Origin: Escherichia coli
Lineage (GTDB): Bacteria; Pseudomonadota; Gammaproteobacteria; Enterobacterales; Enterobacteriaceae
Length of the DNA stretch: 64,000 nucleotides
NCBI RefSeq assembly: GCF_003334355.1
Contig: NZ_QOWP01000014.1
Direction: 5' to 3' (one strand)
Shown here: positions 18,602 to 47,172 of the stretch, piece after piece
Layout: every line of letters starts with the position of its first letter
How positions within the stretch are numbered: position 1 is the first letter of the stretch
Position numbers and translations under genes: made by a program
Notes under the pieces: generated by a model
The model's input: only the letters and a program-made list of their open reading frames with translations
Databases searched by the model: none
Told to the model about the DNA's origin: nothing

Positions 18602-20026
18602 TTACTTCTTCTTCGCTTTCGGGTTCGGCAGGTCGGTAATGCTACCTTCGAACACTTCTGCCGCCAGGCCCACAGACTCGTGCAGAGTCGGGTGCGCGTG
18701 GATGGTCAGTGCGATGTCTTCAGCATCACAACCCATTTCGATTGCCAGACCGATTTCACCCAGCAGCTCACCGCCGTTAGTACCGACAATCGCACCACCG
18801 ATCACACGGTGAGATTCTTTGTCGAAAATCAGCTTGGTCATACCGTCTGCGCAGTCGGAAGCGATAGCACGGCCAGAAGCAGCCCACGGGAAGGTGGCGG
18901 TCTCAAAGCTGATGCCTTTCTCTTTCGCTTCTTTCTCAGTCAGACCTACCCATGCAACTTCTGGTTCGGTATAGGCGATGGACGGGATAACTTTCGGATC
19001 GAAGTAATGTTTTTTACCGGCGATAACTTCAGCGGCAACGTGACCTTCGTGAACACCTTTATGTGCCAGCATTGGCTGACCGACGATATCGCCGATAGCA
19101 AAGATGTGCGGTACGTTGGTACGCAGTTGTTTGTCAACGCGGATGAAACCACGGTCGTCAACTTCCACGCCAGCTTTGCCTGCGTCGAGGTTTTTACCGT
19201 TCGGCACACGACCAATCGCTACCAGCACGGCGTCGTAACGCTGCGGTTCAGCGGGTGCTTTTTTGCCTTCCATCGTCACATAAATGCCGTCTTCTTTCGC
19301 TTCAACGGCGGTAACTTTGGTTTCCAGCATCAGGTTGAATTTCTTGCTGATACGCTTGGTGAAGACTTTAACGATGTCTTTGTCAGCTGCCGGGATAACC
19401 TGGTCGAACATTTCAACCACGTCAATCTGTGAACCCAGCGCGTGGTAAACGGTGCCCATTTCCAGACCGATGATACCGCCACCCATTACCAGCAGGCGTT
19501 CTGGTACTTCTTTCAGTTCCAGCGCGTCAGTGGAGTCCCAGATACGCGGATCTTCATGCGGAATAAACGGCAGTTGAATCGGGCGAGAACCCGCTGCAAT
19601 GATCGCGTTGTCGAAGTTGATCACGGTTTTACCGTTCTCACCTTCAACTTCCAGGGTGTTAGCCCCGGTAAATTTACCCAGACCGTTGACCACTTTGACT
19701 TTGCGGCCTTTCGCCATACCAGCCAGACCACCGGTCAGCTGATTGATCACTTTCTCTTTCCAGGTACGAATCTTGTCGATATCGGTTTTCGGTTCGCCAA
19801 AGACGATACCGTGTTCAGCCAGCGCTTTGGCTTCTTCGATAACTTTTGCTACGTGCAGCAGTGCTTTAGAAGGGATACAGCCGACGTTCAGGCAAACACC
19901 GCCAAGGGTGTTGTAACGTTCTACGATTACGGTTTCCAGACCTAAATCAGCGCAACGGAAGGCAGCGGAGTAACCTGCGGGGCCTGCCCCAAGTACCACG
20001 ACCTGAGTTTTGATTTCAGTACTCAT
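18602..20026 (-). CDS. lpd: dihydrolipoyl dehydrogenase (E3 of PDH/OGDH/GCV complexes)
   Basis: ORF-track 485 aa trimmed to MSTEIKTQVVVLGAGPAGYSAAF (474 aa); FAD motif and redox-active CLNVGC. Confidence 0.97.
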   Translation of the reverse strand: MSTEIKTQVVVLGAGPAGYSAAFRCADLGLETVIVERYNTLGGVCLNVGCIPSKALLHVAKVIEEAKALAEHGIVFGEPKTDIDKIRTWKEKVINQLTGGLAGMAKGRKVKVVNGLGKFTGANTLEVEGENGKTVINFDNAIIAAGSRPIQLPFIPHEDPRIWDSTDALELKEVPERLLVMGGGIIGLEMGTVYHALGSQIDVVEMFDQVIPAADKDIVKVFTKRISKKFNLMLETKVTAVEAKEDGIYVTMEGKKAPAEPQRYDAVLVAIGRVPNGKNLDAGKAGVEVDDRGFIRVDKQLRTNVPHIFAIGDIVGQPMLAHKGVHEGHVAAEVIAGKKHYFDPKVIPSIAYTEPEVAWVGLTEKEAKEKGISFETATFPWAASGRAIASDCADGMTKLIFDKESHRVIGGAIVGTNGGELLGEIGLAIEMGCDAEDIALTIHAHPTLHESVGLAAEVFEGSITDLPNPKAKKK

Positions 20027-20234
20027 CATGACCTCTATATATTTATCTCCGGCGGTCATACCCGTCGTCTTTCAGGCCGCAGCGGCGTTAGCTTCACGCC
20101 CTCACCCCAGTCACTTACTTATGTAAGCTCCTGGGGATTCTGGCGCTTGCTACCTTGCTGCACCCAGAAATCCATAGGGTATGTGAAGTAATACCCTAAC
20201 CACCACCGGGTCGTTCTATCCGTCGGTATTTTAC

Positions 20235-20252
20235 AAAATTGTTAACAATTTT
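20235..20252. promoter_or_regulatory. 18-bp perfect palindrome AAAATTGTTAACAATTTT in the aceF-lpd intergenic (lpd promoter) region
   Basis: Read directly; lies about 210 bp upstream of the lpd start; candidate dimeric regulator site, binding protein not assigned. Confidence 0.4.
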
Positions 20253-20316
20253 TAAACAACAAACGGCAACCGATTTGTCTATTCGCTAATAACCTCAATA
20301 CATTCATGAGATTACC

Positions 20317-20343
20317 AGAAAAAAGCCGGCCGTTGGGCCGGCT
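20317..20343 (-). terminator. Rho-independent terminator after aceF
   Basis: agccggcc-gttg-ggccggct hairpin immediately after the aceF stop; on the minus strand followed by tttttt. Confidence 0.7.
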
Positions 20344-20350
20344 CTTTTAC

Positions 20351-22243
20351 TTACATCACCAGACGGCGAATGTCAGACAGCGTGTTGTTAATGATGGTAA
20401 TGAAACGAGCACCATCAGCACCGTCGATCACGCGGTGGTCGAAGGAGAGAGAAATCGGCAGCATCAGACGCGGCACGAACTCTTTACCATTCCACACCGG
20501 CTCCATCGCGGACTTGGAAACGCCGAGGATAGCCACTTCCGGCGCGTTCACAATCGGCGCGAAGTGGGTAGTACCCAGGCCGCCGATGCTGGAGATGGTG
20601 AAGCAACCGCCCTGCATTTCGCCCGCAGTCAGCTTACCGTCACGCGCTTTCTTAGAAATAGTCATCAGCTCGCGAGACAGCTCGATGATGCCTTTCTTGT
20701 TGACGTCTTTGAATACCGGAACAACCAGACCGTTCGGGGTATCCACCGCCACACCGATGTTGATGTACTTCTTCAGGGTCAGACGCTGACCGTCCTCCGA
20801 CAGCGAACTGTTGAAGCGAGGCATCTGCTCAAGAGCTGCAGCAACGGCTTTCATAATGAAGACAACCGGGGTGATCTTCACATCCAGCTTACGTTTCGCC
20901 GCTTCTTCGTTCTGCTGTTTACGGAACGCTTCCAGCTCGGTGATATCGGTTTTGTCGAAGTGAGTAACATGCGGGATCATCACCCAGTTACGGCTCAGGT
21001 TCGCACCAGAAATTTTCTGGATACGGCCCAGTTCCACTTCTTCGATTTCACCAAACTTGCTGAAGTCCACCTTCGGCCACGGCAGCATGCCTGGGATACC
21101 GCCGCCAGTCGCTGCCGGAGCTGCTTCTGCACGTTTGATAGCTTCTTTCACGTAAGCCTGAACGTCTTCGCGCAGGATACGACCTTTACGGCCAGTGCCC
21201 TTCACTTTCGCAAGGTTAACGCCAAACTCGCGTGCCAGACGGCGGATCAGCGGAGTCGCGTGAACGTAAGCGTCATTTTCAGCAAATTCAGATTTGCCTT
21301 CAGCTTTCGCAGCCGGTGCTGCTGCCGGGGCTTCAGCTTTTGCTGCCGGAGCCGGCGCTGCCGCTTCCTGTTTCGCAGGAGCTGCCGCAGGCGCTGCGCC
21401 TTCAACTTCAAAGATCATAATCAGCGAGCCAGTTTTCACTTTATCGCCAACGTTGACTTTCAGTTCCTTCACGACGCCTGCAAACGGAGCCGGAACTTCC
21501 ATAGAAGCTTTATCGCCTTCTACGGTGATCAGTGACTGTTCAGCGGCAACTTTGTCGCCCACTTTCACCATCACTTCGGTCACTTCAACTTCGTCACCGC
21601 CGATATCCGGAACGTTAACTTCTTTCACGCCAGCCGCTGGTGCAGGGGCCGCTGCCGGAGCTGCTTCCTGTTTAGCGGCCGGAGCTGCCGCGCCTGCTTC
21701 ACCCGCGACTTCGAAGACCATAATCAGCGAGCCGGTAGACACTTTGTCACCCACGTTCACTTTGATCTCTTTCACGGTGCCAGCAAACGGAGCCGGAACT
21801 TCCATAGAAGCCTTGTCGCCTTCTACGGTGATCAGCGACTGTTCAGCTTCAACTTTATCGCCAACTTTCACCAGGATTTCGGTCACTTCAACTTCGTCGC
21901 TGCCGATATCCGGAACGTTAACGTCTTTTGCCGCCGCAGCCGCTGGTGCTGCTGCCGGAGCTGCTTCTTTCTTCTCTTCTGCCTGAGCAGGTGCAGCGTC
22001 TGCTGCACCGTCGGCGGAATCGAAAATCATAATCAGTGCGCCGGTCTGGGTTTTATCGCCAACAGAGACTTTGATCTCTTTAACGATACCCGCCTGCGGA
22101 GACGGAACTTCCATAGAGGCTTTGTCGCCTTCTACGGTGATCAGCGACTGTTCGGCTTCAACTTTGTCGCCCACTTTGACCAGGATCTCGGTGATTTCAA
22201 CTTCATCAGCCCCGATGTCCGGTACTTTGATTTCGATAGCCAT
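20351..22243 (-). CDS. aceF: pyruvate dehydrogenase E2, dihydrolipoamide acetyltransferase (three lipoyl domains)
   Basis: ORF-track 630 aa; three tandem lipoyl domains with Ala/Pro linkers, catalytic C-terminal domain. Confidence 0.97.
21330..22243 (-). repeat. aceF: Three tandem ~300-bp repeats encoding the three lipoyl domains of AceF
   Basis: Near-identical segments recur at ~300-bp spacing (e.g. ggtcacttcaacttcgtc near 21588 and 21879); protein shows three ...VPDIG...[10 protein letters not shown]... domains. Confidence 0.9.
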
Positions 22244-22257
22244 TATTCTTTTACCTC

Positions 22258-24921
22258 TTACGCCAGACGCGGGTTAACTTTATCTGCATCGATGTTGAAT
22301 TTGGCGATTGCGTCAGCAACCACTTTCTTATCGATTTCGCCACGTTTAGCCAGTTCGCCCAGCGCCGCAACCACGACATAAGAAGCATCAACTTCGAAGT
22401 GGTGACGCAGGTTCTCACGGCTGTCGGAACGACCGAAGCCATCAGTACCCAGTACGCGGTAGTCGTCAGCCGGTACGTAAGTACGGACCTGCTCAGCGAA
22501 CAGTTTCATATAGTCGGTAGATGCCACTGCCGGAGCGTCGTTCATCACCTGAGCGATATACGGAACGCGCGGAGTTTCCAGCGGGTGCAGCATGTTCCAG
22601 CGTTCACAATCCTGACCATCACGCGCCAGCTCGGTGAAGGAGGTCACGCTATAAACGTCAGAACCTACGCCGTAATCTTTCGCCAGGATCTCAGCTGCTT
22701 CACGGACGTGACGCAGGATAGAACCGGAGCCGAGCAGCTGAACTTTACCTTTGCTACCTTCAATAGTTTCGAGTTTGTAGATACCTTTACGGATACCTTC
22801 CTCAGCACCTTCCGGCATTGCCGGCATGTGGTAGTTTTCGTTCAGCGTAGTGATGTAGTAGTAAACGTTCTCTTGTTTTTCACCGTACATACGCTCCAGA
22901 CCGTCATGCATGATGACAGCAACTTCGTAAGCGTAAGCCGGGTCGTAAGAGATACAGTTCGGGATAGTCAGCGACTGAATGTGGCTGTGACCATCTTCGT
23001 GCTGCAGACCTTCGCCGTTCAGGGTGGTACGACCGGAAGTACCGCCGATCAGGAAGCCACGCGCTTGCTGGTCGCCAGCCGCCCAGCACAGATCGCCAAT
23101 ACGCTGGAAGCCGAACATCGAGTAATAGATGTAGAACGGGATCATCGGCAGATTGTTGGTGCTGTAAGAGGTCGCCGCTGCCAGCCAGGAACAACCTGCG
23201 CCCAGCTCGTTGATCCCTTCCTGCAGAATCTGACCTTTCTCGTCTTCTTTATAGTAAGCAACCTGCTCGCGGTCCTGCGGGGTGTACTGCTGACCGTTCG
23301 GGCTGTAAATACCAATCTGACGGAACAGACCTTCCATACCGAAAGTACGCGCTTCGTCGGCGATGATCGGTACCAGACGATCTTTGATCGACTTGTTCTT
23401 CAGCATCACGTTCAGAGCACGAACGAAAGCGATAGTGGTAGAGATCTCTTTGCTCTGCTCTTCCAACAGCGCGCCGAAGTCTTGCAGGCTCGGCAGCTCA
23501 AGCTTCTCGGTGAAGTTCGGCTGACGGCTTGGCAGATAACCGTGCAGTTTCTGACGCTGAGCGTGCAGATAGGTATGCTCTTCAGAGCCTTCCGGGAAGG
23601 TGATGTACGGCAGTTTTTCGATATCTGCATCAGACACCGGCACATTGAAACGGTCGCGGATGTGACGCACGCCGTCCATGTTCATTTTCTTAACCTGGTG
23701 CGCGATGTTTTTACCTTCAGCCGCGTCGCCCATGCCGTAACCTTTAATGGTATGAGCAAGGATTACTGTCGCTTTGCCTTTGGTTTCCTGCGCTTTCTTG
23801 AATGCAGCGTAGATTTTCTTCGGATCGTGACCACCACGGTTCAGTGCCCAGATCTGCTCGTCAGTCCAGTCTGCAACCAGTGCTGCGGTTTCAGGATATT
23901 TACCGAAGAAGTGTTCACGAACGTACGCACCATCTTTCGATTTGAAGGTCTGGTAGTCGCCGTCAACGGTTTCGTTCATCAGCTGGATCAGTTTACCGCT
24001 GGTATCTTTACGCAGCAGTTCATCCCAACGGCTACCCCACATCACTTTGATCACGTTCCAGCCAGCACCTTCGAAGATGCCTTCCAGTTCGTTGATGATC
24101 TTGCCGTTACCGGTGACCGGGCCGTCAAGACGCTGCAGGTTACAGTTGATAACGAAGACCAGGTTATCCAGTTTTTCACGGGTAGCGATGGTGATCGCAC
24201 CTTTGGATTCCGGTTCGTCCATTTCACCGTCGCCGAGGAACGCGTAAACGGTCTGTTTAGAGGTATCTTTCAGGCCACGGTGTTCCAGATATTTCAGGAA
24301 TTTAGCCTGGTAAATAGCACCAATCGGCCCCAGACCCATAGATACGGTCGGGAACTGCCAGAATTCCGGCATCAGTTTCGGGTGCGGATAGGAAGAGAGG
24401 CCATTGCCGTGAACTTCCTGACGGAAGTTATCCAGCTGCTCCTGAGTCAGACGACCTTCCAGGAAAGCACGAGCGTACACGCCCGGGGAGATGTGGCCCT
24501 GGAAGTAAACCAGGTCGCCGCCATCCTGCTCGTTGCGTGCACGGAAGAAGTGGTTAAAGCACACATCATAAATGGTTGCGGAAGACTGGAAGGACGCCAT
24601 ATGGCCGCCCAGTTCGAGGTCTTTTTTCGACGCACGCAGCACCGTCATGATGGCGTTCCAGCGGATAGCTGAACGAATACGGCGTTCCAGTTCCAGATTA
24701 CCCGGATACTCCGGTTGTTCTCCAACGGGGATGGTGTTGATGTAGTTGCTGATACCTGTGCCTGCGGCTACGTTTACACCGCCTTTGCGGGCTTCAGCAA
24801 GCAGTTGGTCGATCAGATACTGAGCACGCTCAACACCTTCTTCACGGATGACCGATTCGATCGCCTGGAGCCAGTCGCGAGTTTCGATCGGATCCACGTC
24901 ATTTGGGAAACGTTCTGACAT
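22258..24921 (-). CDS. aceE: pyruvate dehydrogenase E1 component
   Basis: ORF-track 887 aa starting [24 protein letters not shown], recognised as AceE. Confidence 0.97.
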
Positions 24922-25877: not shown

Positions 25878-25894
25878 AATTGGTCTTACCAATT
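25878..25894. promoter_or_regulatory. PdhR operator (PdhR box) upstream of pdhR
   Basis: Perfect palindrome AATTGGTcttACCAATT about 35 bp upstream of the pdhR start; matches the known PdhR box. Confidence 0.8.
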
Positions 25895-26274
25895 TCATGT
25901 CTGTGACGCTAAAGTAACAAAGTATTCACCTTATGTCCATACAGGTTTTGATTGAAATCATGAAACTGTGCACATTTTAACAACTTGACATATATAACGT
26001 TTCAAAGTTGTAACTATGCACAAATGTAGACTTTACGTAGGAAAGGAGTTTTTAACGATTATTAAACTATAAAAATCCGAATTGAACCGATTCACTTACC
26101 AATTTTGTGATTTTTAATTCAATTAAAACGAATTTAAATTCATTCTACATATTGAGAGGGATTGAGGCTGAGCTTTACAAACGGTTTCTTTTTAAGCAAC
26201 TCATCTTCAACCATGCATAAAGCGGGTGCATTCGCTGCCGTATACCATTATTCTTGATCTGACGGAAGTCTTTT

Positions 26275-39719: not shown

Positions 39720-40400
<681 letters not shown>

Positions 40401-44783: not shown

Positions 44784-47172
<2,389 letters not shown>

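Follow-up and report, generated by a model that had tools for sequence, protein, structure and literature searches.

The palindrome of the lpd promoter in Escherichia coli is very probably the middle of the known ArcA-P operator

Analysis of the region between aceF and lpd in a 64,000-bp stretch of Escherichia coli DNA (contig NZ_QOWP01000014.1; the whole stretch is called the window here, and all positions refer to it) led to the conclusion, held with high confidence, that an 18-bp perfect palindrome located there is the central part of the known operator of phosphorylated ArcA (ArcA-P), which overlaps the sigma-70 promoter of lpd. The site, the protein and the physiological role are already known, having been published in 1998 and 2013, and are not new. 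The evidence obtained in the present analysis consists of the identity in sequence with the published site, the score against the matrix, the geometry and overlap of the promoter, and the evolutionary pattern; in vivo occupancy by ArcA, the cited in vitro binding of ArcA-P, the arcA-dependent change in expression and the transcription start site were taken from the literature. An earlier note on this DNA had stated that the binding protein could not be assigned from sequence alone. That statement is incomplete, since the protein was already known to be phosphorylated ArcA from the supplement to Park et al. (2013) and from Cunningham et al. (1998), the latter as cited in the former. The palindrome and the genes that frame it are located as follows:

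18602-20026, minus strand: lpd (lpdA), 474 amino acids, the gene controlled by the promoter that holds the palindrome (RefSeq and orthologue alignments)
20235-20252, no strand: the 18-bp perfect palindrome AAAATTGTTAACAATTTT (from the sequence; its promoter position from the start site and the promoter scan)
20324-20343, minus strand: terminator hairpin of aceF, AGCCGGCCCAACGGCCGGCT, with a run of T after it on this strand (the scan had placed the hairpin on the plus strand)
20351-22243, minus strand: aceF
22258-24921, minus strand: aceE

The palindrome is an exact 18-mer of even length, with 9-bp arms and no spacer between them. It is situated in the 324-bp spacer between aceF and lpd, downstream of the hairpin that terminates aceF and approximately 210-225 bp upstream of the lpd ATG, and both the inverted repeat and its placement were thus correctly described in the earlier note; the minus-strand orientation of the genes went unremarked there, which is immaterial for a palindrome. 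Positions 20000 to 20380 (381 bp) were matched in all 5,426 complete E. coli genomes, with flanking genes annotated as aceF and lpdA, and the terminator hairpin is conserved in Salmonella, Klebsiella and Raoultella. The start of lpd at 20026 follows RefSeq and the orthologue alignments; the mechanical list of open reading frames gave 18602-20059 on the minus strand, using an upstream ATG at 20059 and predicting 485 amino acids.

Within the window the sequence is single-copy, even when up to three mismatches were allowed, and it is the sole perfect palindrome of 18 bp. As a bare statistical event it is nevertheless weak and not unusual: among 300 dinucleotide-preserving shuffles of the window, 25% contained at least one 18-bp perfect palindrome (mean 0.27), and improbability alone was therefore rejected as evidence. 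The significance of the palindrome lies in its location and in the published binding data. Two perfect palindromes of 16 bp occur elsewhere (CCAAAGTTAACTTTGG at 40054-40069 and AGCAGAAATTTCTGCT at 45297-45312), and the total of three with arms of at least 8 bp is within expectation when compared to the shuffle mean of 1.15.

Alignment with the lpdA site of Park et al. (2013, PLoS Genet 9:e1003839; PMC3798270, Table S4) showed that all 33 bases of 20227-20259 on the minus strand are identical to the published ArcA site, with the palindrome occupying bases 8 to 25 of the 33-mer. The two are the same object, sharing sequence, gene context and promoter position with no difference between them, and what the earlier note had singled out is the self-complementary 18-bp centre of the 33-bp site. 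The elements of the operator and of the promoter are the following:

20227-20259, minus strand: ArcA-P operator of the lpd promoter, TTGTTTAAAAATTGTTAACAATTTTGTAAAATA (K-12 127679-127711; -38 to -6)
20250-20259, minus strand: direct repeat 1, TTGTTTAAAA (published 9.4 bits; half-site here 6.8 bits; overlaps the -35 hexamer)
20239-20248, minus strand: direct repeat 2, TTGTTAACAA (published 11.7 bits; self-complementary; core of the palindrome)
20227-20236, minus strand: direct repeat 3, TTGTAAAATA (published 10.7 bits; half-site here 8.6 bits; overlaps the -10 hexamer)
20251-20256, minus strand: -35 hexamer of lpd, TTTAAA (consensus scan and aligned orthologues)
20228-20233, minus strand: -10 hexamer of lpd, TAAAAT (consensus scan)
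20221, minus strand: transcription start site of lpd, a G, 195 nt upstream of the ATG (literature)

The published box has 21 bits, and its repeats form the array TTGTTTA-N4-TTGTTAA-N5-TTGTAAA, with centre-to-centre distances of 11 bp between repeats 1 and 2 and 12 bp between repeats 2 and 3. The palindrome is made up of the A-rich tail of repeat 1, the whole of repeat 2 and the T-run that opens repeat 3. ArcA recognises direct repeats of TGTTA arranged in tandem at a spacing of 11-12 bp, and not an inverted repeat; an ArcA box is made up of two or more direct repeats similar to (A/T)TGTTAA whose centres are 11 bp apart. The same study reported ArcA ChIP-seq peaks at K-12 positions 127646 and 127683 (Table S1) with modest enrichment at lpdA (3.4 and 3.8), and a 6.1-fold higher expression of lpdA in an arcA mutant under anaerobiosis, the change in sigma-70 occupancy being entered as '-' (PMC3798270). 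Earlier binding of ArcA-P to lpd DNA is credited there to Cunningham et al. (1998, FEMS Microbiol Lett 169:403).

The motif comparison that the earlier note had proposed pointed in the same direction for ArcA, and gave no match for PdhR, FNR or MlrA in the searches described below. A position weight matrix derived from 114 published ArcA boxes, lpdA not among them, was run over the window on both strands. The box at 20242-20259 on the minus strand scored 22.3 bits and ranked first among 127,966 placements, exceeding every training site (maximum 22.2 bits). The sense half-sites scored 6.8, 10.5 and 8.6 bits, compared to a training median of 7.4, and the antisense array (4.5, 10.5 and 3.7 bits) was clearly weaker than this sense array. 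The antisense boxes at the site also reached 19.9 and 16.3 bits, and these high scores on the opposite strand are explained by the self-complementary core, the half-site TTGTTAA of repeat 2 scoring 10.5 bits on either strand.

A consensus scan of the aceF-lpd spacer found one sigma-70-type promoter on the lpd strand, TTTAAA-17-TAAAAT at 20256 to 20228 (minus). The start site reported 195 nt upstream of the ATG (PMC2759082) corresponds to 20221, and the position of -38 to -6 listed for the ArcA site in Table S6 of Park et al. (2013; PMC3798270) leads to the same base. Taken together, the promoter scan and the published start site place the ArcA site over the core promoter: the three repeats cover -38 to -6 and overlap the sigma-70 recognition elements, and the palindrome itself spans -31 to -14, which takes in the final two bases of the -35 hexamer and almost all of the spacer.

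In the mechanism proposed here, a reduced quinone pool under micro-aerobic or anaerobic conditions would be sensed by ArcB, which would phosphorylate ArcA, and ArcA-P would bind the three tandem repeats, which extend over both hexamers (-35 and -10) and the spacer between them. Sigma-70 RNA polymerase would be excluded in this way, and the independent lpd transcript would be repressed under oxygen limitation, in step with the genes of 2-oxoglutarate dehydrogenase. Repression by polymerase occlusion was concluded for repressed operons by Park et al. (2013) from the positions of the sites and reduced sigma-70 occupancy. The dyad would be a by-product of this arrangement, as the optimal middle repeat is its own reverse complement and the A-run closing repeat 1 would merely happen to mirror the T-run opening repeat 3.

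A comparable arrangement is found in the ArcA operator of icdA P1 (Park and Kiley, 2014, mBio 5:e01684-14), which likewise has three tandem repeats overlapping the core promoter. At both promoters the third repeat, placed beside or over the -10 element, has a share in the repression, which is attributed to polymerase occlusion. The two sites differ in the information content of their repeats (9.4, 11.7 and 10.7 bits in lpd against 11.2, 4.9 and 3.0 bits in icdA) and in position, the lpd repeats lying on the coding strand from -38 to -6 and the icdA site at -12 to +21; compared with icdA, the lpd site also has a 12-bp spacing between repeats 2 and 3 and is palindromic.

Conservation was analysed in the lpd locus of 80 Enterobacterales species, 79 of which had a usable upstream region, and all 79 promoters aligned without gaps around TTAAC. 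The bases invariant in all of them were -34T, -24T, -23T, -22A, -21A, -20C, -16T, -14T, -13G, -12T, -11A and -7T, which map to the tail of repeat 2 (TTAAC), to repeat 3 (TGTA) and to T-A-n-n-n-T, the pattern that a -10 hexamer should show. Within the -10 element, T-12, A-11 and T-7 did not vary in the 79 species and positions -10 to -8 were variable, which is the usual pattern of such an element. The -35 hexamer reads TTTCAA in most Enterobacteriaceae and TTTGCA in the promoters of the Erwinia/Yersinia type. The palindrome itself occurs in three states:

19 of 79 promoters: perfect over 20 bp, CAAAATTGTTAACAATTTTG (most Enterobacteriaceae genera sampled)
5 of 79 promoters: perfect over 18 bp (E. 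coli, E. albertii, Kluyvera)
55 of 79 promoters: broken

Arms of at least 9 bp were therefore present in only 24 of the 79 promoters. The shorter form in E. coli, E. albertii and Kluyvera results from a C-to-A change in the -35 hexamer, which shortens the palindrome from 20 to 18 bp (the position orthologous to 20234-20253). Substitutions in a single arm break the dyad in Kosakonia, Phytobacter, Pectobacterium, Buttiauxella, Rahnella and others, and a TTTGCA-type -35 region has taken the place of the entire left arm in Erwinia, Pantoea, Serratia and Yersinia. Across the ten symmetric pairs in 79 promoters, 235 cells were non-complementary, compared to one compensated change (in Edwardsiella), and hence a dyad symmetry maintained by compensated changes in the arms was not seen in this set. 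The right arm and the -10 region were much better conserved than the left arm, identity to E. coli being 93% in the right arm, compared to 79% in the left. Repeat 1 was conserved only in promoters of the Enterobacteriaceae type (mean 5.8 bits against -3.9 bits in the others).

This pattern of breaks is, as read from the aligned promoters, the opposite of what would be expected for a symmetric operator. The broken state in 55 promoters, the excess of uncompensated changes and the better conservation of the right arm together point to selection on the repeats and the promoter elements, and not on the symmetry, and we infer that the symmetry as such is without function. The proposal that the palindrome is a candidate operator for a dimeric regulator of lpd consequently stands in one half: it does lie within the operator of a repressor in the lpd promoter, but ArcA reads direct repeats and the 79 promoters show no selection for the dyad itself. 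As the right-hand core stays conserved in promoters of the Erwinia/Yersinia type, where repeat 1 is weak or lost, part of the constraint on that core may reflect promoter function rather than ArcA.

The origin of the symmetry was examined with three-repeat sites drawn from the ArcA column frequencies. An 18-bp perfect palindrome appeared in 5.8e-4 and a 20-bp one in 1.5e-4 of the simulated sites, and approximately 0.07 such palindromic sites would be expected across 128 published ArcA boxes. At so low a simulated frequency the symmetry does not follow automatically from the composition of ArcA sites, and it is a moderately lucky extra. In the 19 species with the 20-bp palindrome the non-palindromic flanks were equally conserved, and for this reason the occurrence of the longer palindrome does not separate a dyad reading from a repeat reading. 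That the dyad symmetry is itself functional, either through a second symmetric regulator sharing the lpd spacer with ArcA or through loading of ArcA-P in either orientation on the self-complementary core, where the antisense boxes score 19.9 and 16.3 bits, is given only a slim chance.

One form of this idea, in which the 18-20-bp dyad would serve not only ArcA but also a separate regulator that binds as a symmetric dimer (GntR/PdhR-like, MerR/MlrA-like or LacI-like) in the promoter spacer, was weighed in detail and is considered very improbable. It would account for a palindrome rarer than ArcA-site composition predicts and for the perfect 20-bp form in 19 of 79 species, but it fits poorly with the uncompensated breaks and with the complete replacement of the left arm in the Erwinia/Yersinia-type promoters. 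Among GntR-family regulators, PdhR was compared, its box at the pdhR promoter (AATTGGTnnnACCAATT) being likewise an A/T-rich dyad that opens with AATTG and belongs to the same operon. The PdhR box is, in contrast, an odd-length dyad with a GGT/ACC core around a 3-nt centre, and the lpd palindrome has neither this core nor this centre. The search for AATTGGTNNNACCAATT gave no match at the lpd promoter within three mismatches, the only match near the pdhR-aceEF-lpd genes being the exact one at 25878-25894, which agrees with the earlier observation that the palindrome resembles the PdhR box without matching it. PdhR has been reported not to bind the lpd promoter (PMC10572922), and genomic SELEX for PdhR gave the pdhR promoter as the only site in the pdhR-aceEF-lpd operon.

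A MerR-type regulator would be favoured by the location of the palindrome in the promoter spacer, where such regulators bind, and by its outer eight bases on each side (AAAATTGT and ACAATTTT), which are identical to the outer ones of the MlrA box as published, AAAATTGTACA(12N)TGTACAATTTT. However, the half-sites of the lpd palindrome are 2 nt apart and those of the MlrA box 18 nt, the complete 33-bp MlrA box had no match anywhere in the window within three mismatches, and the best promoter spacer is 17 bp long, compared to the 19-20 bp typical of MerR-type promoters. MlrA is moreover reported to bind far upstream of csgD and not in a promoter spacer. The FNR site TTGAT-N4-ATCAA had no match in 20200-20290 within two mismatches, and in FNR ChIP-seq the pdhR promoter is the only entry from the pdhR-aceEF-lpd operon. 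The searches for the PdhR, MlrA and FNR motifs at the lpd promoter were all negative, and the three were rejected on these searches.

Exact copies of the 18-mer in metagenome contigs gave no hint of a regulon either. Of 80 such loci, 39 were in contigs of enterobacterial G+C content and 41 in contigs of low G+C content, and every one of the 39 enterobacterial copies was an lpd promoter. The 41 low-G+C loci had unrelated flanks and several lay in eukaryote-like DNA; on these grounds they were rejected as further operators and taken as chance occurrences. In the loci L082, L089, L103, L105, L123, L138, L146 and L151 (G+C 0.30-0.37) the 18-mer lies inside a 26-bp palindrome, GTTGAAAATTGTTAACAATTTTCAAC, and in L105 it falls within a reading frame whose product, judged by eye, resembles a Pif1/Helitron-type helicase. 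This family of contigs is probably eukaryotic repeat DNA unrelated to lpd. A full-text search of the literature matched TTGTTAACAATT in synthetic translation templates only, which are irrelevant here.

A use of repeats 1 and 2 by another response regulator of the OmpR/PhoB family that recognises similar direct repeats, above all PhoP, appears extremely unlikely. The PhoP box is a (T/G)GTTTA-N5-(T/G)GTTTA direct repeat, and TGTTTAAAAATTGTTAA at 20242-20258 (minus) fits this pattern with one mismatch, two such matches being present in 64 kb where 0.67 were expected. Yet at least two matches also arose in 17% of shuffles, and the match follows from the similarity of ArcA and PhoP half-sites. Repeat 1 is moreover TGTTTC in most Enterobacteriaceae, which introduces a second mismatch, and the literature search found no report of PhoP control of lpd and no evidence from binding or expression.

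A role as nucleic-acid structure, whether as a cruciform in the DNA or as a hairpin in the RNA of pdhR-aceEF-lpd read-through transcripts, is scarcely credible. The inverted repeat is perfect and read-through mRNA from the pdh promoter includes it, but the predicted RNA fold reached only -5.9 kcal/mol (z-score -0.59) and 55 of 200 shuffles folded at least as well. All pairs of the stem are A-U or G-U save one G-C pair, the orthologues lack compensatory changes, and Rfam gave no hit above the gathering score.

Further features were observed on both sides of the ArcA-P operator. Downstream, the first approximately 20 nt of the lpd leader (20202-20221, minus strand), GGATAGAACG(A/T)CCCGGTGG, are nearly invariant across promoters of the Enterobacteriaceae type, and the leader motif CCCGGTG recurs in those of the Erwinia/Yersinia type; this conserved start could form a small 5' stem-loop or another binding site. 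The 5' untranslated region of lpd also contains a repeat of the ERIC/IRU type at approximately 20058-20202 (minus strand), where the two standard ERIC primer sequences matched at 20121-20142 (plus) with two mismatches and at 20099-20120 (minus) with one. The repeat varies by strain: 3,433 of the 5,426 E. coli genomes covered at least 80% of the 381-bp query, and among the remaining genomes the matches listed covered 61% of it, in two pieces. In E. coli 2013C-3264 the aceF-lpd spacer is 207 bp long, compared to 324 bp here, and short and long classes of spacer occur in other genera too, at the same position as the ERIC-type repeat.

At the other end of the operon, four regulatory motifs cluster at the pdhR promoter region (25878-25894, 25914-25931, 25948-25961 and 26052-26069). 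They comprise the exact PdhR box AATTGGTCTTACCAATT, an FNR-like site TTGATTGAAATCAT with one mismatch, the published ArcA box TAGTTTAATAATCGTTAA and a further ArcA-like box of 14.1 bits that is absent from the 115 boxes read from Table S3 on which the matrix was based. This cluster fits the two ArcA regions and the one FNR peak reported for pdhR.

The useful outcome of this analysis is a negative one, as the question of which protein binds the palindrome had already been answered, and it carries little weight as a discovery. It indicates, nevertheless, that a tandem-repeat response regulator whose optimal half-site, TTGTTAAC, is self-complementary can give rise to a perfect palindrome, and that at the lpd promoter it is misleading to take a palindrome as the mark of a symmetric dimer. 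In most Enterobacteriaceae the palindrome is 20 bp long, and the ancient conserved unit of this promoter is the right half together with the -10 element, not the dyad.
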